NCBI GenBank assembly: GCA_965226885.1 | Contig: CBDDEL010000016.1 | Location: 768,001-832,000 of the forward strand | Source of the DNA: Opitutales bacterium | GTDB taxonomy: Bacteria; Verrucomicrobiota; Verrucomicrobiia; Opitutales; UBA2987 | DNA length: 64,000 nucleotides | Direction of reading: 5' to 3' | Shown here: in pieces, positions 8,059 through 54,666 of the stretch | How positions within the stretch are numbered: the first letter of the stretch is position 1 | How the letters are laid out: each line of letters begins with the position of its first letter | Program-made: the position numbers and the translations under genes | Notes under the pieces: model-generated | Told to the model about the DNA's origin: nothing | What the model saw: the letters and a program-made list of their open reading frames with translations, nothing else | The model's database searches: none

Positions 8059-8092
8059 TTAACGCTTTGGGAGAATTAACGCTTTGGGAGAA
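8059..8092. repeat. Perfect 17-bp tandem duplication
   Basis: TTAACGCTTTGGGAGAA x2; frameshifting. Confidence 0.95.
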
Positions 8093-8353
8093 GAAAAATG
8101 GAAGGGTTCTTCCATAGCAATCTCTCCCTCGGTGACTTTCAACCATCCCAGGGCGGGATGGTAAACCCAGGGATATCGCCTGATGTTCACATACCCCGCT
8201 GCCCGTGTACCTACCCAGCCATCGCCCCAATTGGGATTGTAGGAATTCTCCATGACGCCGTTTCTGTAGAGAACCTGCGATTTTTCAAATCCAGTAACAC
8301 CATCAGAAAAATCCACTTCCCTTAGTACGATTGAAGGAAAATTCATTTCAAAT

Positions 8354-8393
8354 GTGGCCTCAAGCCTAGTAACGTGGCCTCAAGCCTAGTAAC
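8354..8393. repeat. Perfect 20-bp tandem duplication
   Basis: GTGGCCTCAAGCCTAGTAAC x2; frameshifting. Confidence 0.95.
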
Positions 8394-8671
8394 CACGTTC
8401 GCACAAACAACATGGCGTTCCTCCACATACTTCGTTACAATCACATCGCTTCCTTGTTGATAAACCGTCAGGATATGCAATGCATCACATGGGATGCCGT
8501 TAATTTGGGTAACGAGCACGGTTTCGCCTTTTAGACTTGAGCCGGCCAAAAGGGCGAGAATGGCTAAAATTAATCTTATTGTGACTTTTTTCAATTTCAT
8601 GATTATCGATGTTGGGTGTTTCTGATTGCTGCGGTTATTAAAAGCATGACAAAGAAATATTATTATGTAAA

Positions 8672-8701
8672 CAATAGAAGGTTAGCCAATAGAAGGTTAG
8701 C
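8672..8701. repeat. Perfect 15-bp tandem duplication (intergenic)
   Basis: CAATAGAAGGTTAGC x2. Confidence 0.95.
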
Positions 8702-8725
8702 CCTCAGTCATTTTGAACTAAAAAT

Positions 8726-9700
8726 ATGGGAGTCTCCCACAAAAATTTATCTCGCTGGTATATGCAGACAGGCCAAAACCTGGACGCCGGCATTTCCTTC
8801 GGCCAGGCCATGCAGAGCGCGGGCGGCGCTCCGGCCAAAGATGTAGCCGCAATGGCCCAGCAATTGCAAGCGGGCCTATCCATCGACGAAGTTTTTAAAA
8901 ACGCCCCTGGTTGGCTGCCGCAGGCCGACCGTTTGCTGATTTCTGCAGCAGGAACCAGCGGGCGCATACCCGATTCCCTGAAAAAATTGAGCGAGCGGCA
9001 CAAGTTGGCCGCTGAAAATATTTCGCGGGCTGTTTTTGCCACCCTTTATCCGCTTGGAGTGCTCCACCTTGGGGTCCTTATTTTTCCACTGCTGGACCTT
9101 GTGGAATTTACCGATAGCGGCAGCATGCAGTTTCATCCGGAAGCTTATTTGGGCAATGTCCTGGTATTTTTGCTGCCTCTTTGGGCTGTTATTGGAGCCA
9201 TTATTTTCCTGGCAAAGAAGCGCAGCCCGATCGTATTTTTCCTCATGCGTTCCCTGCCCGGTTTGCGTGGCTACAGCAAGGCCAAAGGCATTGCCGATTT
9301 TTCCTTTGCCCTGGAATCCTTTCTCAACGCCGGGGCGCCCATGGCCGAATCCTGGTTCGCCTCCGGGATGGTTTCGGGGGATCCTAATTTGCAAAATGCC
9401 TCCCTGCAAATCACCAATCAAATCAAGGCCGGGCAGCCTCCGGGAAATTTCATCACTCAATACAAAGTTTTTCCCGATGAATTTGTGACGCTTTACAAAA
9501 CCGGTGAAAAAACCGGCCAGCTCGACACCAACCTCCTCATGCTGACAAAGCAATTCCAGGAGAAAGCCGACCAAAGCCTCAGCGTGGCCAGCACTTGGTA
9601 CCCGAAATTGATATTTCTCATCATCGCCATCTACGCGGGCGTCAAAATGGTGGGCTTCTACAGCCAATACCTAGGCGGCATCCTCAAAATGATCGAATAA
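8726..9700 (+). CDS. Type II secretion / type IV pilus inner-membrane platform protein (GspF/PilC family)
   Basis: Two T2SSF-like domains (LISAAGTSGRIPDSL; LYKTGEKTGQLD) and YP-TM segments. Confidence 0.85.
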   Translation: MGVSHKNLSRWYMQTGQNLDAGISFGQAMQSAGGAPAKDVAAMAQQLQAGLSIDEVFKNAPGWLPQADRLLISAAGTSGRIPDSLKKLSERHKLAAENISRAVFATLYPLGVLHLGVLIFPLLDLVEFTDSGSMQFHPEAYLGNVLVFLLPLWAVIGAIIFLAKKRSPIVFFLMRSLPGLRGYSKAKGIADFSFALESFLNAGAPMAESWFASGMVSGDPNLQNASLQITNQIKAGQPPGNFITQYKVFPDEFVTLYKTGEKTGQLDTNLLMLTKQFQEKADQSLSVASTWYPKLIFLIIAIYAGVKMVGFYSQYLGGILKMIE

Positions 9701-9708
9701 GGTAATTA

Positions 9709-10839
9709 TACCAAATCTCATTAGGTATGATAATAAGTTATTTGGCAGAAGCGTTTGCTTGAATGTGCTGCCAGCCTCCGCCAACTAAAGAGAGGACTTT
9801 TTCAGTGTCCTCCCACCAGTCTTTGAGATGGGTTGCGACGACTTCTTCGAGTCGCTCAATGCTCGGCCACAGTTTGTTGGCCGTTTGATCCTGTATCATA
9901 TCCCAAAGTCTTTCAATCGGGTTGAGTTCAGGACTATACGGCGGCAAATTCACGATATGTATGCCCGGGGGGACGTTGGGGTGCTCCGAGTCGTGCGGAT
10001 GGAAGCCTGCCCCGTCCCATACAACCACATGTTCCTCCTCAGGATATTGCTTTTTGATCTGTTGGAGGAAAGCCTCCGTCCACTGTAGATTCGTGCTAGG
10101 GGTTTGGATGCATACCATCTCGCCGTTGACCACGTCGAGGGCTCCGTAACAGTAGCTCCACTGGTATCTTGTCTGATATTTTTTGTGCGGCCGAAGCCCT
10201 CTTTGCGTCCAGCACCGGCGGTACACCGGAAGCAAACCAAAACGGCTTTCATCGGCAAACCACACCCGAACCCGATTGCCTCGGGTGAGGGAAAGCTCCT
10301 GGAGGATCTTAAAAAAGTCTCGCTTGAACGCTTCCGCTTTTGCCGAGTCCCGTTTCTCATGCACGGGGCGAGGGACTCGAAGCACCCCGGCGCATTTTTT
10401 TAGCCATCGCCACACCGTCTTGTAGGCGAAGGAGCGCCCGAAATGTCGCTCCAGCTCTTGCCCCGCCTGAACGGCTGTGTTCCAGCGCGCGACCTTCAAA
10501 CCATTGAGCAAGAAGGCCTCCACCTCTTTGTCGCAACGGCTTTTGATCCCGCCTTTGTAGGCGCGTGTAAGCACCGCCCCGAGCCCTGCAGCACGATATT
10601 TGTCAAACCAACGCTGGATCGTCGCTTTGCCTCGGCCCACGATGGCTCCAATTTCATCAATGCTGTGGTGCGGCTGGAAGCCCATTTTTAATGCCACCAA
10701 ACGCTCTTTACGCCAGCCGACAGCCTCTTTGTTGAGCAATTTCTTGATACGTTCACGGTCTTCATCGGTTCCCATATATCTTCTCATTCCGCCTTTATAG
10801 CTGTTTTTTAATCTTTATCAATCCTTTTGCGATTTGGTA
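9709..10839 (-). mobile_element. IS630-family element, copy 1 (1131 bp)
   Basis: IRs TACCAAATC...GATTTGGTA; TTA on both flanks; near-identical to 48136-49266. Confidence 0.93.
9738..10787 (-). CDS. IS630 transposase
   Basis: WFADESRFG, VVWDGAGFH, LPPYSPELNPIE (DDE_3-type). Confidence 0.93.
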   Translation of the reverse strand: MRRYMGTDEDRERIKKLLNKEAVGWRKERLVALKMGFQPHHSIDEIGAIVGRGKATIQRWFDKYRAAGLGAVLTRAYKGGIKSRCDKEVEAFLLNGLKVARWNTAVQAGQELERHFGRSFAYKTVWRWLKKCAGVLRVPRPVHEKRDSAKAEAFKRDFFKILQELSLTRGNRVRVWFADESRFGLLPVYRRCWTQRGLRPHKKYQTRYQWSYCYGALDVVNGEMVCIQTPSTNLQWTEAFLQQIKKQYPEEEHVVVWDGAGFHPHDSEHPNVPPGIHIVNLPPYSPELNPIERLWDMIQDQTANKLWPSIERLEEVVATHLKDWWEDTEKVLSLVGGGWQHIQANASAK

Positions 10840-10984
10840 TTATATCCAATTCCGGATATACTCCTTACCGGGAATTTATCTATATAGCGTTTTTCTCTCA
10901 CAGATCAAGGAGAACACAGAATGAGCCTCGAACTACAACATTGGCCGACCCTAGATCTAGAAGATGTTGCCTTATCCGGCCTCC

Positions 10985-11057
10985 CCTGCAAAACCTTAAA
11001 TACCAAACCTATGGAAATGCTCTCACTTAAAATGGTAGTGAAGATGGGGTCCGACCA
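10985..11057 (+). mobile_element. Degenerate right-end remnant related to the IS at 2976-4260
   Basis: CTGCAAAACCTTAAATACCAAACCTATGGAAATGCTCTCACTTAAAATGGTAGTGAAGATGGGGTCCGACCA matches 4189-4260 with several substitutions. Confidence 0.85.
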
Positions 11058-11222
11058 AATGTGCTGAGGGCGTTTTTTAGCTTTTAAAACGTATGTCCAA
11101 TAAGGGAAACCCCCTTGCAGGCTTTCATTTTTAATGTGTCCACAGTAGAGAAAGGCCAGAGCTTATCCGACTCCTCTTTTCCATGATTTCGTGTTTTGTC
11201 TGTAATTTTACCTTTTTCAGAT

Positions 11223-12550
11223 TGACGTGTACTGGATTTGTTGGACACGGGATTCTCTTATATTCATTGTTTATTGATTAGTGTGTCAGGCGGCTTGTTT
11301 TGGTAAAGGGTTTTGTTTTCTCGTTGCCCCCCATGGGGGGCAAATATTTTCCTCGAATTGGACTGGGCTTTGGTAACTCAGAGAGGAATGTTTGCGATAT
11401 CGGTTGTAGAAGATTTCCACGTATTCGAAGACAGTTGATCGCAGTTCGCGCTCGTCGGCAAAGTGGCGGCCTCGAATCGTGCTGGTCTTAAAGCGGCCGT
11501 AGAACGATTCCATGGCCGCGTTGTCGTAGCAGTTGCCTTGGGCGCTCATGCTCGGCTTCATGCCTAGTTCAGAGACCAGCCTCTGATAGTCGTCGCTGGC
11601 GTAGGGGCTGCCCCGATCGCTGTGATGAATAATCCCGGTGCGCAGTGTGCCGCGGGTCATGGCCGCGGCTTTGAGGGCCTTGCCAACCAGCTTCGCGTCG
11701 TTGTGGTTGGAAACGCTCCAGCCCAGCAGGCGTCGGCTGAACAGGTCCATCACCGTGGCCAAGTACATCCAACCGGCCAGGGTCCGTAGGTAGGTCGTGT
11801 CCGCCACCCAGACCTCGTCGATATGGGTCGGCTGGCCATGCTTTTTAAGCACATTGGGGCTGTAACCATAGGGATGGTTACTGTTGGTTTTTAATGGCTT
11901 AAAGCGTTTACTCTGGGTGCTTTTGATTCCCATTTCACGCATCAGACGCAGAGCCCGGTCACGGCCGCAATCGATGCCCTCATCATCCTTCAGATGGCGG
12001 TGCATTGGCCGATGCCCATAGCGGCCCTTGGCCTCTTTGTGTACCTTCAGGATCGCCCCCTTGATTCCCTCGTCCTCGATCCGCCGGGCCGAGGGCGCTC
12101 GGTGCCTCCAGCAGTAATAGCCACTGCGACAAATCCCCATCGCCGAGCATATTTCCTCGATCTTGAAGCGCCCCTCGTTGTCTTTGACAAACTGGTACTT
12201 CATTGTTCGTCCTTGGCAAAGTAGCCCACCGTTTTTTTTAGTATCTGGTTGATCCGCTCCGAGCGGCGCAGCTCTTTGCGAAGACGATCTATCTCGGCCG
12301 CCATCTCCTTCGGACTGCTCTGTCGCTTTGAGGTGGCTTCGCCCTGCTGATCGTCCAGATAGAGCCTCTTCCACCTATACAATTGGTTGGTGTTGACCCC
12401 AAGTTTGGTCGATACCTCGGTGGCGCTCAGACCATCGAGTATCATCAGTTGAACTGCCTCATTTTTGAACTCTATACTAAAGCGTCTTCTTCCCATGCTT
12501 CGATTCTCCATTTAGGAGAATCTCGTGTCCACTTTTTCCAGTGCACATCA
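11223..12550 (-). mobile_element. IS3-family element type B, copy 1 (1328 bp)
   Basis: ~38-bp IRs (TGATGTGCACTGG.. / TGACGTGTACTGG..); orfA 12200-12511 and orfB 11286-12203 (WVADTTY, HHSDRGS, DNAAMESF); no TSD. Confidence 0.95.
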
Positions 12551-13794
12551 CCGAGCGTAAAGGTCCCGAAGTGGGACGGCATACGGTGTCTGCGCAGAGC
12601 GTAGGACGCCACAGTCAGCAGATAGACGAGAGCCGGAAGGACGGCCGCGGCGAGGAGCAATTGTTCCAGTGACTCCGAGAACATTTCCACCGCAATACCG
12701 AGAGCGAGGATCAGGAGGATTGCCGGAATCGGAACGGAGGTGTTCGCGGACACCTTACAGAACAACCGGCTTCCCGGGAAGACACGGTCCCGGGACATCG
12801 CGTAGATCAACCGTGAGCCGGAGGCCATGATGATCAATCCACAGGCGTAGACGGAGACGATTATCAGTAGAAAGAAGAGGGACGCAGACAACGAACCAAG
12901 GTTCCTCTCGATGATCAGCGGAAGCGGGTATTCCGCTTGTGTAACGCTCGCCAGATCATTGATGCCCAATACCGTGAATATCAGGAAGAGGGTGCCGACG
13001 ACGACGCTCAAAGCGACGGAAAGGATCATTGCCCGGGGAACGGTCTTGCTCGCGTCGACGGTCTCTTCGGACAGGTTGGCGGCGGATTCGAAACCGACCA
13101 GGGTATAGGCGCCCATGAGCGATGCCATCATAAATGCCTGCCAGTAGCCTCCAGAGGTGGTCGCGTTTCCGGTGTTAAAGAGAATGTCCAGGGCCGGTCG
13201 CTCCCGGGCCGCCAGAATGGCGAAGATGATGACCAGGCCGACCATCCCGACGACTTCGGTGAATACGGCGCCCGAGTTTATGCGGCTTGCCAGCTTCACG
13301 CCGAAGATATGAATGACCGCTTGGGAAACCATCACGCCGCAAACGATAAGCTTGAGCGTGCCTGGACTGTTTTCGATGCCTGTCATGTATCCGATCACCG
13401 ACGCGATGCCGTGATCGACAGACGGGACAACAATGATCAGGAAGCAGACCGCAATCCATCCGGTGAACCATCCCCATGCCGGGCCGGCCAGCCTGCTCAC
13501 CCATTGGTAGGAATAACCCGTCAGCGGCATGCGCGCCGAGAGCTCGGCGAATACGAGCGCCACAAGCATCTGCCCCACGGTTACCAAGGGCCATGTCCAG
13601 AACCCCGCTGGCCCCGAGCGAGTAAGAACCAGGTGGTAGTTGACGGAAATCCCCGTCGTTATCGATATAAAGGAAAAAGCCACCGCGAACGATCCGAGAA
13701 AACGGATCGTCCTCTGTAGTTCCTGGCGGTATCGAAACGTCGACATCACCTGCCGATCATCCGAGGAACCTCTCTCGTCTCCTGTTATTCCCAT
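12551..13794 (-). pseudogene. APC-family amino acid permease, C-terminus truncated by IS3
   Basis: FAELSARMP, GFESAANLSEE and SRLIYAMSRD motifs; after ...FTLG the frame reads into the IS end (DVHWKK...). Confidence 0.85.
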
Positions 13795-14192
13795 ATTCTC
13801 AACCTAGATTTCCCATATGATCACTCATAGTCGTTGAAAATAGCCACTTTCTGAATTTTCGATCCAATTTTCTACTTTCATGGTGATTTGCAAATCTTAT
13901 CCTTCGTTATTCGATGATCAAATCGGCAGCATCTAGCAGCTATTGATGATTTTATCTTTGCCCGGTAGTATCAGGGAAAGACATTTCCCATTGTTAGAGG
14001 TTTCCGCAGCACTGGTAGCCTTCGCACGGTGGAACTTCAACTTGATTCGGCGGTTAAATTGAACCTGAAAATAGTTTTTTTGCGTCACTGATTGAATTTT
14101 TAGAATTTGCTTGCCATAAATCTACTTAAGTAACTTATTATTAATCACATAGCGATTATTTCAAGATAATTTTCTTATGCATTTGAGATTCA

Positions 14193-14726
14193 ATGATGCC
14201 TGATTCTAACGAACAACTAGAATCGGCCACTTTCGGGGCTGGATGTTTTTGGTGTGTGGAAGCGGTTGTTAAGCGTTTGCTTGGGGTTGTGTCTTTTTCT
14301 TCCGGTTATATGGGCGGCCATACGAAGAATCCCACTTATGAGGATATTTGCACCGGGCAAACGGGCCATGCGGAGGTTGTTCAGGTGGTTTTCGATCCTG
14401 AAAAAATCTCGTTCCGGGAATTGCTGGATGTTTTTTGGCAATTGCATGATCCCACGACCTTGAACCGGCAAGGGGGCGACACCGGTACGCAATACCGTTC
14501 AGCTATATTTTATAATTCGGAGGAACAAAGAAAAATGGCCGAAGAATCGAAGGCCAGTGAAGAGGCTAGCGGCCAGCACAATTCGCCCATTGTGACTGAG
14601 ATCGCTCCTGCGGAGCATTATTATGAGGCCGAAGTTTACCATCAGGATTATTATGACAACAACAGGGCCGCTCCCTATTGCCGGATGGTCATTTCGCCGA
14701 AATTGACGAAGCTGGGAATGAAATAA
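14193..14726 (+). CDS. msrA: Peptide-methionine (S)-S-oxide reductase
   Basis: GCFWC active site; GHAEVVQ, HDPT, QYRS, EVYHQDY. Confidence 0.96.
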   Translation: MMPDSNEQLESATFGAGCFWCVEAVVKRLLGVVSFSSGYMGGHTKNPTYEDICTGQTGHAEVVQVVFDPEKISFRELLDVFWQLHDPTTLNRQGGDTGTQYRSAIFYNSEEQRKMAEESKASEEASGQHNSPIVTEIAPAEHYYEAEVYHQDYYDNNRAAPYCRMVISPKLTKLGMK

Positions 14727-14750
14727 TTTTTTTCCGGCAGGCTTTCTTTT

Positions 14751-15404
14751 TCAGGCTTTGCGGTTCACAAACGGTTTTTTGCGGTTGGGGTAGCAGGCGC
14801 GGCAAATTTCGCAGACTGTTCCATTGCAGCCCCTGGCACTGCAATGCTCCCTGCCGTAATAGATGATTTGCAGGTGCAGCCGGTTCCATGTTTGCTTGGG
14901 AAAGAGCCGTTTGAGGTCTTTTTCCGTTTGCAGGACATTTTTCCCGTTGGTCAGACCCCAGCGTTGGGCCAGCCGGTGGATGTGGGTATCGACCGGGAAG
15001 GCGGGAAATCCGAAAGCCTGGGCCATGACCACGGAGGCGGTTTTATGTCCCACACCGGGGAGAGCCTCCAAATCCTCAAAGGTGGTGGGAACTTCTCCGT
15101 CGTGAGTATTGATCAGAATTTTTGACAAACCGGCGATGGCCCTGGCTTTGGATGGGGCCAACCCGCAGGGGCGGATGATGTCTTCGATCTTTTCGACGGA
15201 AAGGCGCGACATATCATGCGGATTATCGGCCAGGGCAAAGAGGGAAGGGGTTGTTTTGTTGACCCTCACATCGGTGCATTGGGCCGAGAGAAGAACCGAA
15301 ACCAGCAAAGTGAAGGAATCCTTGTGAGAAAGCGGAATAGCCGGTTTGGGATAAAGCTCATCCAACCGATTGAGAATATAAGCGGCGCGCCCTTTTTTAT
15401 TCAT
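14751..15404 (-). CDS. nth: Endonuclease III
   Basis: LLSAQCTD, HhH LPGVGHKTA, VDTH, C-terminal Fe-S cysteine cluster. Confidence 0.95.
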   Translation of the reverse strand: MNKKGRAAYILNRLDELYPKPAIPLSHKDSFTLLVSVLLSAQCTDVRVNKTTPSLFALADNPHDMSRLSVEKIEDIIRPCGLAPSKARAIAGLSKILINTHDGEVPTTFEDLEALPGVGHKTASVVMAQAFGFPAFPVDTHIHRLAQRWGLTNGKNVLQTEKDLKRLFPKQTWNRLHLQIIYYGREHCSARGCNGTVCEICRACYPNRKKPFVNRKA

Positions 15405-15529
15405 TATAGAAAATAATCGAAAATTTTTTTAGGTTGAAAAAGATTGGTTGTAGATCGCAATTAAGCTTTTAACTTTCAGAGTGCGATTTCCAGAATTTTT
15501 TCATAGCCGATAGCATTTTCAATCGAACC

Positions 15530-18523
15530 ATGCCAGAGATATTAAAGGGTAAAATCCTGCCTTATGATCCGACTGTCCTGCCGAGGGAACTAAAACGCCA
15601 TTATATCTCCGCCAGTCAAACGGATGTGGATGCTATGCTGGCGGAAAGCGGGCTGCAAAAGCTGAGCGACTTGTTCAAGCATATTCCGGAACCGGCATTG
15701 TTTGAAGAATTCTCGAATTTACCGGAGGAACTCTCTTATGAGGGCGTCATGGAGCGGTTGGAGGAGATCGCCTCGCGCAACAACCTTTTAGATAATTATA
15801 TGGGGGATGGATTGGGTGATTTCGAGGAGCACGAAATTGTGGATTATGTCTCGGGCATTCGGCGATTGACCACTGCCTATACGCCTTATCAGCCGGAACG
15901 CAGCCAGGGGACATTGCATACCCAGTGGATCTACCAATGCCTGATGGCCCAATTAACCGGGTTTGAGGCCATTAATTCCTCCCTTTATGACCGCTCGACG
16001 GCTTTGTTTGAGGCGCTCTTTGTGGCCCTTCGGCTGAAGCGCAGGGCTGACACCGCCATTATACCGGAAGCCCTTTATCCGGGAGATTTTGAGGTCCTCG
16101 AAACGCTGGCCCGGGATACCGAATTGCGGATAGTGAAAATACCCCTGAACCCGGAAACCGGCCGTATTTCCCACCAGGCGGTGGCAAAAGAAGCGCGCCG
16201 TTTGGGTGAACGGCTGGCGGCCATTGTTTTTCCGCAGGTCAATAATCTCGGAATCCTTGAGGAAGTGGATGGTCTGGCCGATTTATGCCTTGAAATGGGG
16301 GCTAAAAGCATAGCCGTTATCGATCCCATGCTGCTCGGCACGGGCGGGCTAAAACCGCCTTCCGAGTTTGGCCGGGAAGGTGTGGATATGATCGTGGGCG
16401 AAGGGCAGCATCTGGCTATAAGCCCGAATTTCGGGGGGCCGGGGTTGGGCGTTTTCGGAATTCGTTGCAATCAAAAGAGGAAAAACGATGTTCGACACAC
16501 ACCTGGCCGATTCGTGGGCAAGGCGGTGGATGCCGAGGGGCGGGATTGCCGTGTGATGGTGCTCTCCACTCGCGAGCAGCACATTCGGAAAGAGAAGGCT
16601 ACCTCGAATATCTGCTCCAACCAGGCATTTCTGGCCACCCTGGCCGGGGCCGCCCTTTTGGCCAGGGGAGAAAGCGGCATGGCCCGGATTTGCCGCATGG
16701 CCGGTGAACAGACCTCAACCACCGCCAACCAGCTCGCCTGCGTGCCGGGGGTGCGTATGGCATTCCCGCGCGAACCTTTTTTCAACGAATTCACCCTGGC
16801 CCTGCCGGTGAAGGCTTCGACCCTGATCGATAAGGGGCGGGAGCAGGGTTTGCTGATTGGCGTAGACGTTTCGTCCAGAGTCGGCGATGGGAGCCGCAGC
16901 CTGTTGAAAATCTCATTTTCGGATAAGAAAAAAGATTTAGAAAAGCTCGTCCGGTTTTTCGAGGAGCAGTTCGGCCAGAGGGAAATGGATTCCCCGCCAG
17001 TGCCGTCCATAGCTAGCCATCTGTTGAGGGGAAAACCGGCGGGATTACCGGAATTTTCCCTCAATGAGGTAAAGCAATACTACCGAGACCTGGGCAAGCT
17101 GAACGTCAGCCCGGACGATGCTTGTTATCCGCTCGGTTCCTGCACCATGAAATACAATCCCTATTTAAACGATTGGGCGGCCGGCTTGAAGGGTTTTACG
17201 GGAGTCCATCCCCAAGCGCCGTTGGAGGATGCGCAGGGTTGTCTGGAGATTTTGTTCGAGATACAGGAATGGTTCAAAGCGATCACCGGTTTGCCCGCGG
17301 TAACAACCCAACCGGTAGCCGGCGCGCAGGGGGAACTTACCGGCATCAAGCTTTTTCGGGCTTACCACCGGGACCGGGGCGAACCCCATCGCGATGTCGT
17401 CCTGATTCCGAAATCGGCACACGGGACTAATTTTGCCACCGCTGTGATGGCGGGCTTCGGTTCCGCCAAAGCGAGCGAGACCAAAGGCGGCATCGCCCTG
17501 CTGGAAGCCGACCAAAGTGGCATCATCGACCGTCAGGACCTGGAGGAAAAAATCAAACAATGCGGGCGACGCATTTGCGGGATCATGGTTACCAATCCCA
17601 ACACCAGCGGGATATTTGAAACCCATTTCAAGGAGATTGCGGATGCCATCCATGCAGTGGGCGGTCTCGTTTATATGGACGGGGCCAACATGAATGCCAT
17701 TGCCGGTTGGGTCGATCTGGGTGCGCTCGGTGTCGATGCGGTGCATAACAATTTGCACAAAACCTGGACCATTCCCCACGGCGGGGGCGGCCCCGGGGAC
17801 GCCATTGTAGCGGTCAGCGACAAGCTGGCGGATTATCTGCCGGGCTATTTGATCGATAAAAGGGATGGCCGGTTCGTTGCCGTAAAACCTGCCAAAAGCA
17901 TCGGCTCTTTCCATCGGCACTGGGGAAATTTTGCCCATAAAGTGCGCTGCTATGCCTATTTGCTGCGTCTGGGAAATGAAGGGATCCGCCGGATGTCTGC
18001 TGTGGCGGTCCTTTCATCGAGGTATCTCTACGAAAAGTTGCGGCGGGATTATCCCACGCTGCCGGCCCATGCCGAAGATGCGCCCCGTATGCACGAATTT
18101 ATCCTTACCCTGGCGGAAAAGGATTTTGAGACTCTGGAGGCGGTCAGCATACCCAAAGCATTGGCCCTTACACGATTGGGCAAACTGTTTCTGGATTTTG
18201 GGTTTCACGCCCCCACGGTGGCCTGGCCGGAGGCTTTCGGCGTTATGATCGAGCCGACGGAAAGCTACACCAAGGCTGAGCTGGACCGTTTCGAGGAGGC
18301 CGTCAGGCATATCCTGAAAATCGTGCGGGAAAAACCCGAGGCGCTCAAGCAGACGCCCTTTTTCACCCCCATCGACCGCGTCGATGAAGTGTCCGCCAAC
18401 CGGAATCTCATTTTGAGCGAACCCTTGCAGCAGCTGCCGGAACTTTCCCCGAACCGGCTCGATCCCGAATCGCTGGCCGCAATGAGCGTTCCTGATATTT
18501 TCAAAAAAATTATAAACAGTTAG
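15530..18523 (+). CDS. gcvP: Glycine dehydrogenase (P protein), single-chain fusion of GcvPA- and GcvPB-type halves
   Basis: TAYTPYQPE, TREQHIRKEKATSNIC, PLGSCTMKYN, PLP-lysine NLHKTWTIPHGGGGPG, IEPTES. Confidence 0.93.
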   Translation: MPEILKGKILPYDPTVLPRELKRHYISASQTDVDAMLAESGLQKLSDLFKHIPEPALFEEFSNLPEELSYEGVMERLEEIASRNNLLDNYMGDGLGDFEEHEIVDYVSGIRRLTTAYTPYQPERSQGTLHTQWIYQCLMAQLTGFEAINSSLYDRSTALFEALFVALRLKRRADTAIIPEALYPGDFEVLETLARDTELRIVKIPLNPETGRISHQAVAKEARRLGERLAAIVFPQVNNLGILEEVDGLADLCLEMGAKSIAVIDPMLLGTGGLKPPSEFGREGVDMIVGEGQHLAISPNFGGPGLGVFGIRCNQKRKNDVRHTPGRFVGKAVDAEGRDCRVMVLSTREQHIRKEKATSNICSNQAFLATLAGAALLARGESGMARICRMAGEQTSTTANQLACVPGVRMAFPREPFFNEFTLALPVKASTLIDKGREQGLLIGVDVSSRVGDGSRSLLKISFSDKKKDLEKLVRFFEEQFGQREMDSPPVPSIASHLLRGKPAGLPEFSLNEVKQYYRDLGKLNVSPDDACYPLGSCTMKYNPYLNDWAAGLKGFTGVHPQAPLEDAQGCLEILFEIQEWFKAITGLPAVTTQPVAGAQGELTGIKLFRAYHRDRGEPHRDVVLIPKSAHGTNFATAVMAGFGSAKASETKGGIALLEADQSGIIDRQDLEEKIKQCGRRICGIMVTNPNTSGIFETHFKEIADAIHAVGGLVYMDGANMNAIAGWVDLGALGVDAVHNNLHKTWTIPHGGGGPGDAIVAVSDKLADYLPGYLIDKRDGRFVAVKPAKSIGSFHRHWGNFAHKVRCYAYLLRLGNEGIRRMSAVAVLSSRYLYEKLRRDYPTLPAHAEDAPRMHEFILTLAEKDFETLEAVSIPKALALTRLGKLFLDFGFHAPTVAWPEAFGVMIEPTESYTKAELDRFEEAVRHILKIVREKPEALKQTPFFTPIDRVDEVSANRNLILSEPLQQLPELSPNRLDPESLAAMSVPDIFKKIINS

Positions 18524-18550
18524 TTGTTGATTGTTTTTTTATAAATAATA

Positions 18551-19219
18551 ATGACCTTTCCGCCCCGGATTAAAATATGCTGTATCAACAGCGTGCAGGA
18601 AGCCCGTTTGGCAATCCGCTACGGGGCCGATGCCTTGGGCCTGGTCTCACACATGCCGAGCGGTCCAGGGGTAATTTCCGAGGAGTTGATTGCGGAAATC
18701 GCAGGCATCGTGCCACCGGGAGTGGCCTCTTTTCTGCTGACCAGTTTGCAGGATGCGTCTTCAATTATCAGCCAGCATAGGCGCTGCCGCACCAATACGC
18801 TGCAATTGGTTGACCGGCTGGAAGAGGGTAGTTATGAGGATTTGCGTGAGGCTTTGCCGGGAATATCCATCGTGCAGGTGATCCATGTGCGGGGAGAGGA
18901 ATCGGTGGCCGAAGCGCTGGAATCGGCGGCTCACGTCGATGCCCTGCTGCTGGATTCCGGCAACCAATCTTTGAAGATCAAGGAGCTGGGGGGGACCGGG
19001 CGCACCCATAACTGGGATTTGAGCCGTGAAATCTGTCAAAAAACGGAAATCCCGATCTATCTGGCGGGAGGCTTGAATCCGGAAAACGTGGCCGCCGCCA
19101 TCAAACAGGTTCGACCCTTCGGGCTGGACCTCTGCTCGGGAGTGCGCACCAACGGCCATTTGGACGAGGAAAAGCTGGCCGCTTACGTTAGAAATATTCG
19201 CATTTGCGCAAGCAATTAA
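18551..19219 (+). CDS. trpF: Phosphoribosylanthranilate isomerase
   Basis: IKICC, LLLDS, GGTG, LAGGLNPENV, DLCSGV. Confidence 0.88.
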   Translation: MTFPPRIKICCINSVQEARLAIRYGADALGLVSHMPSGPGVISEELIAEIAGIVPPGVASFLLTSLQDASSIISQHRRCRTNTLQLVDRLEEGSYEDLREALPGISIVQVIHVRGEESVAEALESAAHVDALLLDSGNQSLKIKELGGTGRTHNWDLSREICQKTEIPIYLAGGLNPENVAAAIKQVRPFGLDLCSGVRTNGHLDEEKLAAYVRNIRICASN

Positions 19220-19297
19220 AGAAACTGCATTCATCCCAAAGTTTACTTGGTAAAAATATGGGAGTGATATTTGAGATCGGGTTTTTCTTTTTGACTA

Positions 19298-19320
19298 CTT
19301 ATGAGACCTTATGAGACCTT
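19298..19320. repeat. 10-bp tandem duplication (intergenic)
   Basis: CTTATGAGAC x2 followed by CTT. Confidence 0.85.
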
Positions 19321-23378: not shown

Positions 23379-23577
23379 GGGACCTCCTGCGATTTTTCTT
23401 CAAGATTCCAATCATTTCAGCCTGAATTTCAGCCTGATCGACCAGTTCGCGGGCCAGGATGGAGTTCTGCCTCTCTTCTTCCACCTCGGCGAGAAGTTCC
23501 GGGAGGGAATACTTGACCTCGTTAATGACCGGTGAAGATTTCGGCTTTTTCTCCGTGCCTGGCATATTTTCGGGCAT
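23356..23577 (-). CDS. Small hypothetical protein between the receiver gene and the ATPase
   Basis: 73 aa; operon-like position overlapping the ATPase start; contains an in-frame 12-bp duplication. Confidence 0.6.
   Translation of the reverse strand: MPENMPGTEKKPKSSPVINEVKYSLPELLAEVEEERQNSILARELVDQAEIQAEMIGILKKNRRRSRGNNSRG
23414..23437. repeat. Perfect 12-bp tandem duplication (in frame)
   Basis: ATTTCAGCCTGA x2, encoding QAEI-QAEM. Confidence 0.9.
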
Positions 23578-32379: not shown

Positions 32380-34953
32380 ATGGCGAAAACCGGCAAACAA
32401 AAGAAAGAGGGCTCCCTTACCCCCATGATGCGCCAGTATCAAGAGGTGCGGCGGGGGCTGCCGCCCAACACCCTGCTCCTCTTTCGCCTCGGCGATTTTT
32501 ACGAAATGTTCCTCGACGACGCCGCCACCGGGGCCCCCATTATGGGTATCACCCTGACCAAACGCCACGGCATGCCCATGGCCGGGATTCCCTACCATGC
32601 CGTCGACAATTACATCGGGAAACTACTGGCGGCAGGGAAAAAAGTCGCCATCTGCGACCAAATGGAAGCTCCCCAGCCCGGCAAAATCGTGAAACGGGCG
32701 CTCACCCGTATCCTTTCGCCGGGCACGACCTTGGAAGACCATCAGAGCAATGCGCGCACCAATAATTTTCTCCTCGCCGTCGAATGGGAAAAATCCACCT
32801 TGCAAGCGGCCTGGCTGGACCTTTCAACCGGGTATTTTCAAATCGCCTCGGACCCCTCGCCCGAAAATTTACTGGCCGTATTTTCCAGCATCCACCCGAG
32901 GGAAATCATTATCCCGGAGGAGGCCGCCAATGTTTGGAAAAAAGATGAAAGCCTGCAATCCTGGGCAGATTCATTTTTTCAGTTTTGTCAAGGGCGTCCT
33001 GTCAACGAACTGCCCGCCTACCACTTCGATCAGCCCGGCGGAGCCCAGAGTGTGATGGACGCTTTGGGAGTCATCAACCTGCAAGGTTTCGGCATCGCTG
33101 CGGAACACGGCGGCCTAGGGCCGGCCGGCGCCTTGATCCATTACGCGACCGAAAGCCTTTGCTCCAAACCGGGCAATTTGCGTGGGATCAAGGAATACCG
33201 GACCGCCCGAACCCTTCTCCTGGATCCCGCCACCTTGAGAAACCTGGAAATTTTCCGCTCCTCTCAAAACCGGCGGGAGGGAAGCCTCCTGGAGGCCATG
33301 GACGCCACCGTAACGGCTGCCGGAGCACGCCTGTTGGAACAATACCTGGCCGAGCCAACCCTGAACCTTGAGGAGGTAAAGCGACGCCAAAACTGTGTCG
33401 GAGATTTTCTCCAGGGGCCCGCATTCGCCTCGGAAATCCAGGAATACATGAAGGGTATCCGCGATATTCCCAGAATCCTGGGCCGGCTGCAAAACCGCAT
33501 CCGAAACCCACGCGAGCTGGGCGGCATCCGCGACACCTTGCGCCAGATCCCTCTCATTTTGCAAGTTCTTGGGCAATTCGATGAACCCGGGTTGGAGAAA
33601 TTGGCTGGCAAAGCGCTCGATTATCCGCAGTTACGCGAACTTCTGGAAAAATCCCTCGCCGAGGAGCTTCCCAATCAATTGAAGGACGGCGGCTACATCC
33701 GCGATGGTTTTGATGAATCTCTCGACCGTCTGCGGGGTTCCTCCCTTGAAAATAAAAACTGGCTTTCCGATTTGGAGAGAGAAGAACGGGAACGAACCGG
33801 CATCAAAAAACTTCGCATAAAATACAACCGTGCTTTCGGCTATTTTATAGAGGTGACCAAGATTAATCTCGATCTTGTCCCCGATCATTACATCCGCAAG
33901 CAGACGACCACTAACGCTGAACGCTACTACACCGAGGACCTGAAACAAAAGGAGAAAGAAATCCTCCACTCCGATGAAAGGTCCATTGCAAGGGAGGAGG
34001 AATTGTTTCGCAATCTGGTGGCCCATGTCTTGGCCGAAGCGGAATCCCTGGCCGAAACCGCGCGCGCCCTGGCGGAAATCGATCTTTACATCGGCTGGTC
34101 GAAAATCGCCCGCGAATGGGACTATTGCCGGCCTGAAATGGATGACAGCAGCTTGCTCCAAATCGAGGTGGGCCGCCACCCGGTTATCGAGCAAACCATC
34201 CGCAAAGAGCGTTATGGCTTGGCCGGGGCGCGTGCATTCGTTCCCAACGATGCCTTTTTGAGCGCGGAAAAAGATCAGATAGGTATCATCACGGGGCCCA
34301 ACATGGCAGGTAAATCCACCTACATCCGGCAGGTCGCCTTGATTACCCTAATGGCCCAAACCGGTTCCTGGACACCCGCCCGAAAATGCCGCATCGGCCT
34401 GGTCGATCGCATATTTTCCAGGATCGGGGCCAGCGACGAACTGTCTCGCGGCAACTCCACCTTCATGGTGGAAATGAACGAGACCGCCAACATCATCAAT
34501 AACGTGACCGATAAAAGTCTCGTCATTCTCGACGAAATCGGGCGCGGCACCAGCACCTACGATGGCATGAGCATCGCCTGGGCGGTCGTCGAGCACTTGC
34601 ATGGGGAAAAGATCCGCGGTCCCCGCACCTTGTTCGCCACCCATTACCACGAGTTGACTCGGCTCGAGCAATTGCTGCCCAGGGTATGCAATTACTGCGT
34701 CGCGGTGAAGGAATGGAATGACGAAATCGTTTTTGTGCGGCAGGTCTTGCGGGGCGCCTCCGACCGCAGCTACGGCATCCAGGTAGCCCGCTTGGCCGGT
34801 CTCCCCCAGAAAATCATCGATCGGGCCAAAGTATTGCTGGAGCAACTGGAGGCGGACGATTCCAGCCACAATCTGGCGGCGGACCGAAAAGGGGGGAAAC
34901 GCTCCGGGGTGAAGGAACCCAAACAATCCTGGCCCCAAATGGAACTTTTTTGA
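32380..34953 (+). CDS. mutS: DNA mismatch repair protein MutS
   Basis: TPMMRQY, GDFYEMF, TGPNMAGKST, STFMVEM, DEIGRGTS, FATHYHEL, SYGIQVARLAG. Confidence 0.98.
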   Translation: MAKTGKQKKEGSLTPMMRQYQEVRRGLPPNTLLLFRLGDFYEMFLDDAATGAPIMGITLTKRHGMPMAGIPYHAVDNYIGKLLAAGKKVAICDQMEAPQPGKIVKRALTRILSPGTTLEDHQSNARTNNFLLAVEWEKSTLQAAWLDLSTGYFQIASDPSPENLLAVFSSIHPREIIIPEEAANVWKKDESLQSWADSFFQFCQGRPVNELPAYHFDQPGGAQSVMDALGVINLQGFGIAAEHGGLGPAGALIHYATESLCSKPGNLRGIKEYRTARTLLLDPATLRNLEIFRSSQNRREGSLLEAMDATVTAAGARLLEQYLAEPTLNLEEVKRRQNCVGDFLQGPAFASEIQEYMKGIRDIPRILGRLQNRIRNPRELGGIRDTLRQIPLILQVLGQFDEPGLEKLAGKALDYPQLRELLEKSLAEELPNQLKDGGYIRDGFDESLDRLRGSSLENKNWLSDLEREERERTGIKKLRIKYNRAFGYFIEVTKINLDLVPDHYIRKQTTTNAERYYTEDLKQKEKEILHSDERSIAREEELFRNLVAHVLAEAESLAETARALAEIDLYIGWSKIAREWDYCRPEMDDSSLLQIEVGRHPVIEQTIRKERYGLAGARAFVPNDAFLSAEKDQIGIITGPNMAGKSTYIRQVALITLMAQTGSWTPARKCRIGLVDRIFSRIGASDELSRGNSTFMVEMNETANIINNVTDKSLVILDEIGRGTSTYDGMSIAWAVVEHLHGEKIRGPRTLFATHYHELTRLEQLLPRVCNYCVAVKEWNDEIVFVRQVLRGASDRSYGIQVARLAGLPQKIIDRAKVLLEQLEADDSSHNLAADRKGGKRSGVKEPKQSWPQMELF

Positions 34954-43005: not shown

Positions 43006-43837
43006 CTAACCTTTGCTGGACGCGGTGTGCGTGTCGGTTGACTCAAAAATTTTGTCCGCGCTGGCGGCTACGAAACCGTTATAGAGATGGCCATCGGCAT
43101 CGGCGTAGCGGAGGGCAAACTCGTAGTAGCAAGTGGGAATCTCATGCACCTGGCCGCCGGCAAATTCCACCGGCATGCGGTCGGCCATTGACGACCCCTG
43201 CTCCAGTAATACCTGGGGCGATCCTTTGACCCGACCACCCGATTGATTGACCGGTATACCCTGCTCCTCCACCACTTGCAGCACACCTTCAACTGTCGGG
43301 GTTTTCTTCAGGTGGTTGACGGCGATCGTAAAATGGTTGGCATGCAACCCGTGGGCGGCAAACCAGGCGGCGTATTCACTTTCTTCAAGCAGTAAGCCAT
43401 AGTCATCCCATGAAATCGGATCCCACAAGCGGCCGGCCCAAAGAACTTCCGGTCCCTCCACCCGGATGGGGTCAATCTGAGTGCAAATACCTTGCAGAAT
43501 TACCTTGCAGAATTTTTTGCGCGTCCACGCTGAGGGTGGAACAATCAAGGGCGCTCAGAAAAATCCTGGGCTGGGAAGGGTCTGGATGCAAATAACCCCA
43601 GGCATTCAATTTTTTTTCTTTGAAAACATAGGGCGCCAGGGGCTCGTAGCCGAGGGCCAGGATATGCTTTTGCAGCACTGGCAGGCGAATCAGATCCAGA
43701 TCGAGGGTCCGAAATGCGACGTGATCGTTGAGGACTTGCTCGCCTCTGTTTTCAAAAACAGATTTAAGCCGGGCGGCGCGGGGGGCCATCCCGATGTAGT
43801 CCTCCCAGAGACTTTGGAAGAAGATTTGAGTATTCAT
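43006..43837 (-). pseudogene. DUF1338 / HglS-like 2-oxoadipate dioxygenase-decarboxylase, frameshifted
   Basis: NDHVAFRT, SEYAAW, NHFT, LLEQ, YYEFALR; removing one 13-bp copy (43488-43513) restores a 272-aa frame. Confidence 0.85.
43488..43513. repeat. Perfect 13-bp tandem duplication
   Basis: TACCTTGCAGAAT x2; frameshifting. Confidence 0.95.
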
Positions 43838-46614: not shown

Positions 46615-46672
46615 GGCTCAGCAATTTGATGGGGGGCGACATTGGCTCAGCAATTTGATGGGGGGCGACATT
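46615..46672. repeat. Perfect 29-bp tandem duplication
   Basis: GGCTCAGCAATTTGATGGGGGGCGACATT x2; frameshifting. Confidence 0.95.
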
Positions 46673-51744: not shown

Positions 51745-52893
51745 TCATCTATAATAAAAGGTAATACTGAATGGCTCTTCTACACTCAGAATGGCCACCA
51801 TTTCTTCCGTCCACGGTCCGAAGGGCGCCCGTGATTGAATAGAGTCCTGCGCGACCAGCGTGGCCACCCGGCTGGCTGTGGTGAAAGCGATAACCAAATT
51901 CTTGATTTCCCCCTCCCGCGTCAGTTTGAATTTCACCAGCACCATTGAATTCACCTCTGCTCGAGCCACCTGACTCTGGAAGGCCAGAATCTGAAATTGT
52001 GAACCGATGGCGTCGAACATGCGCGCCAGATAATCTCCGAAATCGGTGAATTTGGCGCTCACGGCGATATTGTCCATAACCGGGGCCCGCCCGGAGGATT
52101 GCATGATCGGCCCTGGAAGCACTGATGAGGCTACCCTCGGTCTGGGGCGGGGCTGCTGGGGTTGAGCCGCCAAAGTCTGCTCTGGGCTGGGCGGTTCCAC
52201 ATTGGGTTTGAGAAACTGTTCAACCGAAGTCACGGTTAACGGTATATCGCTGGCCCGCAAAGGATCTTCGACATCCGCTTCCCCCTTATTCGGCGCATCC
52301 GCCATGCTGGCAATCCCTTCCTCCGACAGCACCGTGTCCTGCTCAATGAAGTCCGGTGCCATTGGCTGAGGCGGGGGCAAGTAGGGAATCGATGGACTCT
52401 GCTGCTGCTCGACCGATTCCTGCTGCGCCAATGCCTCCGGAAAAGGCTGCGCATCCGAGTAGGTGCCATCGATTATTTTTGACGATTCTAATTCCTCGCC
52501 ATCAATGAAAGGCATATCGTCCGGGCCCGCATCCGACTCCTCCTTTTGTCCCGCCTGCTGGTCGCGATTGGAAATATTGGCCGTTTCATCGGGTTCATTG
52601 GTTGGCACATCCGGATTGGTCTCCACAAACCGCTGTTCCTGAGGCTCCGGCAGAGCGTCCTCATAAACATATTCCACCTCACGATCGCGACTAAGGGTGT
52701 GGTCGGCAATCAGGCTGCGCTTTATTTCCCAGGGAATCATCCAGAAAAGCATCAGGTGCAGAAAAAGCGTTACCGCCATGGCCCACCCAACGCCCCGCAA
52801 GTCCCCCCCCTCCAGTTTAGGGGAAGCCAGATAACGGGAAATATCAATCTCCCGCCGCTTCTGCTTAGGTGCTTTGGCCGTCGTCGCTCTCAT
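51745..52893 (-). CDS. TonB/TolA-like protein (TM anchor, Pro/acidic linker, C-terminal domain)
   Basis: TM segment with the motif TLFLH; long P/E/Q-rich linker; C-terminal VLVKFKLTREGEI...APFGPW. Confidence 0.6.
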   Translation of the reverse strand: MRATTAKAPKQKRREIDISRYLASPKLEGGDLRGVGWAMAVTLFLHLMLFWMIPWEIKRSLIADHTLSRDREVEYVYEDALPEPQEQRFVETNPDVPTNEPDETANISNRDQQAGQKEESDAGPDDMPFIDGEELESSKIIDGTYSDAQPFPEALAQQESVEQQQSPSIPYLPPPQPMAPDFIEQDTVLSEEGIASMADAPNKGEADVEDPLRASDIPLTVTSVEQFLKPNVEPPSPEQTLAAQPQQPRPRPRVASSVLPGPIMQSSGRAPVMDNIAVSAKFTDFGDYLARMFDAIGSQFQILAFQSQVARAEVNSMVLVKFKLTREGEIKNLVIAFTTASRVATLVAQDSIQSRAPFGPWTEEMVAILSVEEPFSITFYYR

Positions 52894-52958
52894 GAAAAAT
52901 GAATTCAGTAAAAATAAAGTAAATTTCGATTACTATAAATTAAAAACTATCCGTCTCA

Positions 52959-53591
52959 TCAAGCATCCAGTTTGCATCCAGTATCCGGCAACCTAAGCGC
53001 TTCCCAAAGCCCATGTTTTTGCAGTAATTCCGAAGTCTCCTCGACCGGCAGGCCCATCACGTTACTGAACGACCCTTCTAGATTTTCCAATATGATTTCC
53101 CTGCCCTCCTGAATACCGTAGGCCCCCGCCTTATCCAAAGGATCGACAATGCTCAAATAGCGGCTGATCCCCTCCTCGTCCAGTTGCCGGAAAGTGACTT
53201 CGCTGGTCACGCACAGAGTCTCGTCAATATTGCGCTCCCGAAATATCAGGCAAATACCGGTAAAAACCGTATGGGTGCGCCCGGAAAGCTGGCCCAACAT
53301 ACGCCGGGCATCCTCCAGATCGCCCGGCTTGTTCAAAATAACGCCATCCAAAGCCACCGTGGTATCCGCCCCCAGCACCGGGCAGTGGGCATGGGCTCCA
53401 TCCGCCACCACGAACTCGGTCTTCAAACGACAATTATGCAGCACCAGCGAACGCGGGTCGGCCCCCGCCTCAAACCATTCCTCCACCGCCGCCGGAACCA
53501 CCGCAAAGCGCAAACCCATCTCGTTGAGAAGATGCCGCCGCCGAGGCGAAGAAGAAGCCAACACCAATTGCAAATGTAAACGTGAATTCAT
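52959..53591 (-). CDS. maf: Maf-family nucleoside triphosphate pyrophosphatase
   Basis: LASSSPRRR, GADTTV, LSGRTHTV, DKAGAYGIQ, NVMGLP. Confidence 0.93.
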   Translation of the reverse strand: MNSRLHLQLVLASSSPRRRHLLNEMGLRFAVVPAAVEEWFEAGADPRSLVLHNCRLKTEFVVADGAHAHCPVLGADTTVALDGVILNKPGDLEDARRMLGQLSGRTHTVFTGICLIFRERNIDETLCVTSEVTFRQLDEEGISRYLSIVDPLDKAGAYGIQEGREIILENLEGSFSNVMGLPVEETSELLQKHGLWEALRLPDTGCKLDA

Positions 53592-53643
53592 CGAAATAAA
53601 ATCTCTCTAGTAAACGTGAATTCATCGAAATAAAATCTCTCTA
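53576..53643. repeat. Perfect 34-bp tandem duplication spanning the maf start
   Basis: GTAAACGTGAATTCATCGAAATAAAATCTCTCTA x2. Confidence 0.95.
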
Positions 53644-53986
53644 AAAAAAGCCAAAATGAAGAAAATGATAAGATAAGAATAATAAGAGCCAATCCAGCAA
53701 AGGTCAGGACTATACCATATTCCAGAAAAAACCGCAATAGATACGTTGGCTCCGTTTGATGCTGATGCGTTTGAATAAACTTCAAAAAAACCAGAAAAAA
53801 TCCAAAAATGCGCCAATATGTCCCACCAAAACATATCCCCCATCAAACATCCTGCACCCAAATAATTCCTCTTATCAGCCAAAAAATTAAAACTAAATTG
53901 CAAAATTCAGCCAAAATGTTATCTTACCCAATTATAGACATGCGCACAATATGTTAAGATTAAATCGATAAACAGAGGAGGACGAA

Positions 53987-54666
53987 ATGAAAGATATTGC
54001 ATTAATAACGATACATGGTATGGGAAAAGTGGATCTAAATTATTTTTCAGATTTAGAGGACGGACTAAAAAATAGACTCGGCAGGGACTGGACAAGGATT
54101 TCTTTTCAAAATGTACAATACGCGCCGATACTACAAAAACCACAGAATCAATTATGGAGGGACATAATAAGAACGCCCGACAATGATATAGATGCTACAA
54201 AGTTAAGGCAGTTTTTTCTTTATGGTTTTGGTGATGCCGGCTCTCTTGAATACAGTGCCCATAATGACGAGGTGAAATACATTGAGGTACAGGAAAACAT
54301 ACAAAAAGCATTAAATAACGCATACTCGGAATTGGGTCGGGACAATTCAAAGTCTGTCGTGATTATCGCCCATTCACTTGGTTGCCAAGTGATTTCCAAT
54401 TATCTTTGGGATGCACAAAATAATAAGTATATATTTAAAAATACTGGTGGTAATGATTCTCCTGAATTAGATTTCCTTCGATTAAAATCCCTAATTAATT
54501 TGGTTACTACTGGCTGCAATATACCATTGTTCATTTCAGGTATAAGTGATCGCCAGTGTTTTAATAAACCGAATGATCAATTCAAATGGGACAATTGGGA
54601 CAATTATTATGATCCGGATGATGTCCTTGGATGGCCGTTGAGGCAGTTGAGTAACTCATTCAATAT
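53987..54666 (+). pseudogene. AT-rich alpha/beta-hydrolase-like protein, C-terminally truncated by IS3
   Basis: RBS GAGGAGG; IHGMG, IIAHSLG, YDPDDVLGWPL; the frame runs into the IS end. Confidence 0.7.
54587..54604. repeat. 9-bp tandem duplication (in frame, WDN-WDN)
   Basis: TGGGACAAT x2. Confidence 0.8.

Follow-up and report, generated by a model that had tools for sequence, protein, structure and literature searches.

Tandem duplications with a one-strand junction mark in an Opitutales lineage, and topoisomerase III as their probable source

A 64-kb stretch of DNA from an Opitutales bacterium (the window; C16:768001-832000 of the genome G000) carries a series of short, exact head-to-tail duplications, and more than 550 such junctions are found in the genome as a whole (5.48 Mb in 17 contigs, 96% complete, with 35% of its bases in repeated DNA). 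We conclude that these duplications are real, derived and ongoing, and that they form a lineage-restricted mutational signature. The shape of the junctions and the gene content of G000 make it probable that the duplications are mis-rejoining products of TopB, a topoisomerase III and the sole type IA topoisomerase of this genome. If so, no topoisomerase III enzyme would have had its mutational signature taken from a genome sequence before, and the hundreds of junctions would map in vivo where such an enzyme prefers to cut and rejoin. How unique sequence first gives rise to a tandem repeat is described as unknown in the Discussion of a study of an E. coli topoisomerase mutator (PMC6954433). In the natural junctions described here, the register, the strand rule and the hot spots with a fixed start all point to one enzyme.

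An initial annotation of the window had read nine exact duplications as the trace of an unusual mutational process. In a comparison of the genome with three local shuffles of its 5.48 Mb, 602 exact tandem pairs with a period of 10-60 bp were counted, against 7, 4 and 8 in the shuffles. The overlap at the junction was 4 or less in 559 of the 602 pairs; overlaps of 0, 1, 2, 3 and 4 occurred 323, 142, 68, 20 and 6 times, where chance (a 25% base match) would give about 314, 157, 59, 20 and 6. Junction overlap is thus at chance level, and the flanking direct repeats that define replication slippage are missing. Replication slippage was rejected on this ground; deletions in the same DNA do show microhomology. 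In the non-repeated DNA of G000 there are 355 duplications in 3.54 Mb, or 10.0 per 100 kb. The surviving events are young, since among pairs of 16-45 bp in unique DNA 179 are perfect and only 8 have one internal mismatch. Their youth gives no start date for the process, as perfect repeats can re-collapse.

The junctions carry a mark, and it lies on one strand at both ends of the duplicated unit. In 289 unique zero-overlap events, C was enriched five bases outside either end (position -5). Pairing of the end marks on the same strand was enriched (odds ratios 1.7 and 2.7) and inverted-outer pairing was depleted (odds ratio 0.30, p 1e-6), so that one strand is marked twice and the mark is neither a palindrome nor an inverted pair. 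A palindromic target motif at one end was considered and rejected as an artefact of mixed strands. Once events are oriented, the start is T-rich at -8/-7, has C in 72% and A in 4% of events at -5, and has A/T at -4 to -1. The 3' end shows a weaker form on the same strand as the start, with C at 44-46% and G at 29-30% at -5. When the orienting method was applied to matched random sites in 8 runs, no base exceeded 41%, compared with 72% for C. The excess of strong start sites extends down to units of 5-7 bp.

This geometry bears on one of two mechanisms that the initial annotation had named, in which staggered nicks on opposite strands are filled in and end-joined, and equally on lagging-strand flap errors. 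Both routes yield duplications of variable length, and G000 has the background for them in that the Pol I polymerase is absent and its 5' nuclease stands alone. Staggered nicks would predict an inverted mark, the very arrangement that is depleted, and the mark is found on one strand at both ends. Five genus genomes were searched for the end-joining proteins, and neither Ku nor an ATP-dependent ligase was found in any of them (0 of 5 each). Flap re-annealing, for its part, requires microhomology. A lagging-strand origin is opposed by the strands of neighbouring events, which agree in 67 of 142 pairs and show no relation to GC skew, although the skew is weak and the genome rearranged. We therefore hold nicks or flaps to be a very unlikely source.

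The insertion sequence (IS) copies of G000 provide a second record of mutation. We aligned 1255 pieces from nine IS families (BLAST pieces of at least 300 bp) to their consensus and obtained 102 distinct polarised duplications of at least 4 bp, 30 deletions and 1358 distinct substitutions, the last number being inflated by subfamilies within family F2; a further 24 insertions of at least 7 bp were left out as imperfect, nested or complex. The rate is about one duplication per 13 substitutions. The initial annotation had noted that no duplication lay inside an IS element, which holds within the window but not genome-wide, where 136 of the 559 pairs lie in multi-copy DNA.

A matrix derived from 202 non-repeat events gave 94 held-out IS-copy duplications a mean score of 2.97 versus -0.89 for matched sites (p 8e-33), and the same matrix gave no signal on the 30 IS-copy deletions (p 0.63). 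Among positions -1 to -8, these 94 duplications were enriched at -5 only (77 of 94 versus 59.3 expected), and both ends were marked on one strand in 44 versus 23 expected. Microhomology of at least 3 was seen in 20 of the 30 deletions and in 11 of the 102 duplications from the same copies. Independent events returned to the same starts: 26 pairs had a common 5' start and 3 a common 3' end, where the null means were 0.6 and 0.5. Units of 6, 7, 9, 10, 11 and 14 bp arose at the hottest site, and the three hottest starts were ranked 6/3098 (the hottest), 9/3590 and 18/3590 by the held-out matrix. One cluster of three events has a common end rather than a common start, as might be expected if the acceptor end has a preference too.

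The duplications in IS copies add 1282 bp and the deletions remove 764 bp (events of at least 4 bp, with large deletions outside the count). Because duplications number 102 and deletions 30, small-indel pressure runs toward gain, opposite to the usual bacterial trend, and it inactivates genes. Work on pseudogene deletional bias (PMC6054270) likewise used neutral DNA of a drifting genome as a record of mutation; there, 300 insertions stood against 396 deletions and few exceeded 15 nt, whereas here duplications outnumber deletions.

Two side observations concern the same IS copies. Units of 20-45 bp are already present in three or four copies at F1 1078, F4 763, F4 1814, F8 626 and F2 1172, and represent the birth of minisatellites from fresh duplications. 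Additionally, more than 15 different duplications on both strands cluster at positions 1669-1711 of the F2 consensus, around two short direct repeats.

The second mechanism named by the initial annotation was that the duplications are footprints of excised transposons with long target duplications of variable length, as made by elements of the IS1549/IS1634 type. Such elements can make repeats of 8-514 bp (PMC2266710), and a member of the family resides in both affected genomes: the cut-off of profile NF033559 was passed only in G000 (3 copies) and in its sister genome G004 (84 matches), with about 99% likeness between the two. Furthermore, genic duplications lie somewhat nearer to IS ends than chance would place them (median 1.6 versus 2.6 kb), an arrangement that could reflect relaxed selection in decayed regions. 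The resident element, however, makes 4-bp target repeats (YTAR) in 7 of its 8 complete copies, the eighth having none, and no copy flanked by a long direct repeat was found. When the whole genome was searched for elements enclosed by direct repeats of 10-60 bp, the only hits were palindromes and two IS1-type cases with 9-bp repeats. The common IS families of G000 have target repeats mainly of 3-8 bp. Moreover, the mark is one-stranded and not two-fold symmetric, its inverted arrangement is depleted, and 3 copies would have to account for more than 550 events. The footprint explanation is already largely refuted by these observations, and we give it almost no weight.

The IS1634-family element itself is found at G000:C4:26890-28900. 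It moved between G000 and G004 recently, since it is about 99% identical in the two while their genes are 86-90% alike. An IS3-family element is also 99.7% shared between the two genomes.

Within the window, a rescan recovered all nine duplications of the initial annotation with unchanged starts and lengths, together with a tenth pair missing from its list. In the following, G003 and G004 are relatives of G000, and X4 and X5 are strains known from contigs of other studies.

8059..8092, plus strand: 17-bp tandem duplication, overlap 0; frameshift in a minus-strand gene; weak junction mark, A at -5.
8354..8393, plus strand: 20-bp tandem duplication, overlap 0; frameshifts the gene at 8059 a second time; strong start site TTTCAAAT^.
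8672..8701, plus strand: 15-bp tandem duplication, overlap 1, with G at -5; the X4 strain probably does not have it.
18778..18788, plus strand: single copy in the window of an 11-bp duplication in the X5 strain; the start has C at -5.
19242..19254, plus strand: single copy in the window of a 13-bp duplication in the X5 strain; the start has C at -5.
19298..19320, minus strand: 10-bp tandem duplication, overlap 3, intergenic; minus-strand start site TTACTAAA^; 15-bp unit with the same start in the X5 strain.
23414..23437, plus strand: 12-bp tandem duplication, overlap 0, just ahead of the gene for a type II secretion ATPase; G004 has one copy.
32380..34953, plus strand: intact mutS, 857 aa, domains I-V.
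43488..43513, plus strand: 13-bp tandem duplication, overlap 1; shifts the frame of a gene for 2-oxoadipate dioxygenase/decarboxylase (HGLS); G003 has one copy.
46615..46672, plus strand: 29-bp tandem duplication, overlap 2; a PAS hybrid histidine kinase loses its receiver domains through the frameshift; G004 and G003 have one copy each.
53576..53643, plus strand: 34-bp tandem duplication, overlap 0; covers the beginning of maf but leaves its 210-aa frame open; strong start site TTGCAAAT^.
54587..54604, plus strand: 9-bp in-frame tandem duplication, overlap 1; start site ATTCAAAT^.
62352..62369, strand unassigned: tenth tandem pair, 9 bp and in frame, in an AcrB-family gene; no junction mark, scores as chance.

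The overlaps of the nine original events (0, 0, 1, 3, 0, 1, 2, 0 and 1) agree with the range of 0-3 bp first reported, and C stands at -5 in 7 of the 9. The pair at 62352 may be a chance product. Four duplications were said to frameshift genes in a way that the removal of one copy would reverse, and this was borne out, with three genes affected in all: the frame at 43488 grows from 182 to 282 aa, that at 46615 from 636 to 897 aa, and removal of one copy at both 8059 and 8354 opens a frame of 233 aa. The claim of an intact MutS was likewise upheld, and mutL is intact elsewhere in G000; mismatch repair is therefore not the lesion.

The derived state of the duplications was examined in orthologues from G004 or G003. 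These are single-copy at 23414, 43488 and 46615, and the diverged orthologues at 8059, 8354 and 53576 show no second copy; the orthologue of 8672 in G004 is interrupted by an IS 8 bp away. The alignment at 19298 was unusable, and 54587 and 62352 had no match. Read support, which the initial annotation had proposed to seek in raw reads, was taken from contigs (Logan) of 4 public runs aligned to window positions 4300-23900. The tested stretch supports the duplications, while four of the nine sites lie outside it. Contigs of run X1, possibly the source sample itself, span 8059, 8354, 8672 and 23414 with 0 differences. A contig from X4, another sample of another study, covers 7477-8939, including 8059-8672, with 15 gap letters; judged by this gap count, X4 carries the 17- and 20-bp events, probably without the 15-bp one. 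Run X5, from a third study, has its own 11-bp and 13-bp duplications that are absent from the window, and each has C at -5. At 19298 it has a 15-bp unit where the window has the 10-bp one, and the two units start at the same minus-strand position.

An assembly or polishing artefact would have in its favour that contigs rather than raw reads were compared, that X1 may be the source sample and that four of nine sites fell outside the aligned stretch. In contrast, contigs from three studies carry these events or their own, 34 events recur across several IS copies, G004 has a separate set with the same mark, and 8 pairs contain an internal mismatch. An artefact is refuted for the tested stretch and scarcely credible overall. 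The view of the initial annotation that an unusual mutational process is at work thus stands in so far as the events are real, recent and independent of repeats; both mechanisms that it named for the process fell.

The process is restricted in its distribution. Relatives were sampled in part, 20-680 kb each, and the density is high in G004 and low or zero in the others. We counted 30 duplications in 680 kb of G004, 5 in 360 kb of G001, 2 in 154 kb of G002, 0 in 134 kb of G003, 6 in 400 kb of G039, 2 in 160 kb of G008, 0 in 200 kb of three small genomes (0.8-0.9 Mb) and 3 in 450 kb of loci from 31 more distant genomes. The density in G000 is twice that of G004. The 30 duplications of G004 bear the same junction mark (p 9e-8); in the other relatives, with few events, p was 0.2-0.3.

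The single type IA topoisomerase gene of G000 lies about 12 kb ahead of the window and encodes TopB, of 830 aa. Its profile scores are 1072 bits for NF006032 (cut-off 1058), 586 for TIGR01056 (516) and 237 for topA_bact, under the cut-off of 456, and its closest solved relative is E. coli topoisomerase III (Topo III; E 5e-86), with topoisomerase I (Topo I) at 4e-35. Alignment to E. coli Topo III shows that TopB keeps the EKP lysine, the DxD metal site, the GRVQ arginine and the catalytic tyrosine. In published cleavage data, bacterial Topo III and human Top3 both have C at -5, and yeast Top3 has either G or C there (bioRxiv 10.64898/2026.03.13.711646). In E. coli Topo III an arginine reads the -5 base and A is disfavoured, the preference being otherwise weak (PMC13476441); the register of Topo I is -4 (PMC11999072). 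Type IA enzymes hold the 5' end on the tyrosine and rejoin it to a 3'-OH (PMC9363430). The mark in G000 is alike in having C or G at -5 of the cut strand with A disfavoured. These papers describe cutting and rejoining, whereas here the duplication is a mutational product.

The sole new bond in a duplication joins the end of the unit to its start. Both sides of this junction look like occupants of one active site, from which we infer cutting, escape and extension of the 3'-OH, and rejoining. In the proposed scheme, TopB would cut one strand at the start site and keep hold of the unit by its 5' end. Meanwhile the 3'-OH would slip from the enzyme and be extended by a polymerase over 5-50 nt along the intact strand. 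The new 3' end would then be seated in the same TopB groove and the bound 5' end joined to it. The resulting strand would read X-U-U-Y, with a loop beyond the size range of MutS, and replication would fix the duplication. Such a scheme would need no homology and would give a fixed start, a variable length and no reciprocal deletion. Extension may fall to DnaE or a Y-family polymerase, uncoupled from flap removal, because the genus is without a Pol I polymerase domain and has a stand-alone 5' nuclease.

The same path of nicking, extension and rejoining could be started by a different enzyme that cuts one strand and either links to the 5' end or frees it. Examples are a repair nuclease and a HUH nickase, such as a Y1/RAYT-like protein that stands alone. 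Marks on one strand and a fixed start are compatible with all enzymes of this sort, a 5'-phosphotyrosine link is made by HUH enzymes too, and G000 has a single-copy gene for a Y1/HUH-domain protein of 329 aa (L157:629-1618), which by its size appears not to be an IS200-type transposase. This gene is also present in G001 and G002, however, which are without the process, and the sites of HUH enzymes are short exact words adjoining the cut, where here there is a lone C at -5. IS200/IS605-type transposases do not help either, as their 55 matches (loci L031-L100) are restricted to G004, with none in G000. We consider a cutter other than TopB unlikely.

The proposal that TopB makes the duplications has precedents. 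Eukaryotic Top2 mutants make de novo duplications of 2-5 bp, and there too the error of a topoisomerase produces a tandem repeat from unique sequence; Top2, a type II enzyme, cuts at a symmetric site with a fixed stagger of 4 nt, whereas here one strand is involved and units are 5-50 bp. A closer likeness is the topA R168C mutator of E. coli (Bachar et al., PMC6954433), which makes repeat-independent head-to-tail duplications of 4-36 bp, with hot spots and with mismatch repair intact; deletions also occur, and its authors found no motif. The two processes share their product, head-to-tail duplications that need no repeat and range from a few to about 40 bp. In E. coli the cause is a laboratory mutation in Topo I, whereas here we see a natural state in two species, with Topo III, a retained arginine and a sharp mark. 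Thus the process in G000 resembles the topA R168C mutator without its defining lesion, as a natural variant with the register of Topo III. The suggestion of an undescribed mutagenic system must be narrowed to this extent, as a laboratory mutant makes the same kind of product. A literature search on duplication spectra of topB or topoisomerase III, de novo duplications and Opitutales, with subscription journals mostly uncovered, returned no natural case.

The E. coli mutant also allowed a control. We placed 32 distinct duplications of at least 4 bp with printed sequence (supplement of PMC6954433) on BW25113 by their coordinates, leaving out three mutation-accumulation rows without sequence, repeated events and table rows absent from the text. 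Their overlaps of 0, 1 and 2 (17, 10 and 2 of 32) are at chance level, as in G000.

Several points weigh against TopB as the source, or against the arguments used for it. In the 32 duplications of the R168C set neither the -5 mark nor the both-end mark was seen, and C at -4, the best of eight positions, occurred in 23 of 32 versus 18.5 expected (p 0.06); so although its products resemble those of G000, this laboratory strain lends the register argument no confirmation. Bacterial Topo III is without the -4 preference of Topo I according to two papers, and its preference is weak according to one (PMC13476441, PMC11999072, PMC9363430). The arginine of the R-x-x-A-D-W motif is kept in TopB, its equivalence to R168 being our own reading. 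In G004 the both-end excess is present at -4 too (15 of 30, beside 18 of 30 at -5). A strong start site is found in only about a third of events of at least 10 bp. The strands divide into 40 coding and 59 template (p 0.07), without a bias to the non-template strand, where the single strands of R-loops lie. In 12 imperfect duplications the polarity of the mismatch splits both ways and the orientation is often unclear, so the newer copy is not assignable. A C followed by a run of A/T carries little information, and a different nicking enzyme could leave the same mark. Finally, the evidence that would tie TopB to the duplications is correlational throughout.

A separate question is what set the rate. 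TopB departs from near-invariant columns only at A14T and A18T, both in the helix after the EKP lysine. T18 occurs in G000 and G004 only among 121 sequences, and in 0 of the 119 other homologues; on the other side, it is one of about 12 rare residues common to both sister genomes by descent. A18T, placed after the catalytic EKP motif, is thus a candidate for the raised rate in G000 and G004. A14T was rejected as a cause: T14 is found in 4 of the 119 other homologues, is absent from G004 and is present in G039 without an excess of duplications, and so is neither needed nor sufficient. A metagenome search gave no close relative of TopB, the best match being 54%. We tentatively propose, with a little less than even confidence, that in this natural lineage TopB writes tandem repeats and that a heritable change in the enzyme, fixed before the two species split, set the rate.

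Alternatively, TopB may be normal, and a low baseline shared by TopB-only bacteria without Pol I polymerase may have been made visible or amplified by drift and by decay of clean-up enzymes; on this view TopB is still the cutter, and only the reason for the rate differs. Repeated DNA does make up 35% of G000, a PolA polymerase domain was found in 0 of 5 genus genomes, and xseA, encoding the large subunit of exonuclease VII (ExoVII), is broken only in G000, the genome with twice the density of G004. The xseA locus (G000:C11:253527-256392) carries an IS1380-family insertion and a frameshift from a 1-bp deletion, and the gene is intact in G001-G004. However, G001, G002, G003 and G039 have the same background with few duplications and no mark, the three small genomes (0.8-0.9 Mb) showed none in 200 kb, and G004 has the process with xseA intact. 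ExoVII removes 5'-tyrosine adducts from overhangs of at least 4 nt in vitro, yet its loss did not sensitise E. coli to a trapped type IA enzyme (PMC7929499); since ExoVII gave no protection there, the loss of xseA is at most a modifier. An amplified baseline is, in our judgement, an improbable account of the rate.

Two broader losses were rejected as causes. Loss of the Pol I polymerase as a trigger fails as order-wide background: full-length PolA is present in 4 of 41 genomes of the order, and the genus has a stand-alone 5'-3' nuclease of 290 aa (L156:1494-2366). Loss of TopA fails in that a single type IA match is the rule among the relatives too (39 of 40), G003 having none. Open frames were found in G000 for RecA, RecQ, RecJ, MutL, XseB, RNase HII/HIII, DnaE and two Y-family polymerases. 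The genomes searched yielded no SbcD (0 of 5), no RNase HI (0 of 5) and no second GyrA/ParC gene; G000 has one GyrA/ParC gene.

The remaining observations concern other features of the window. An Rfam scan returned one tRNA and nothing else. An IS630-family element, F5 (window 9701-10848), has no target repeat in 46 of 47 copies by our boundary call, and its TA target is likely merged with the element ends. The ankyrin-repeat protein at 19478-19969 is truncated by an IS at 19932, and its repeats differ in the X5 strain. The F2 transposase (20144-21625, 493 aa, about 164 copies) has no Pfam match at 1e-5 and falls under all NCBIfam cut-offs, the best being ISNCY with 206 of 325 bits; the family has a 3-bp TAA-type target and comprises several subfamilies.

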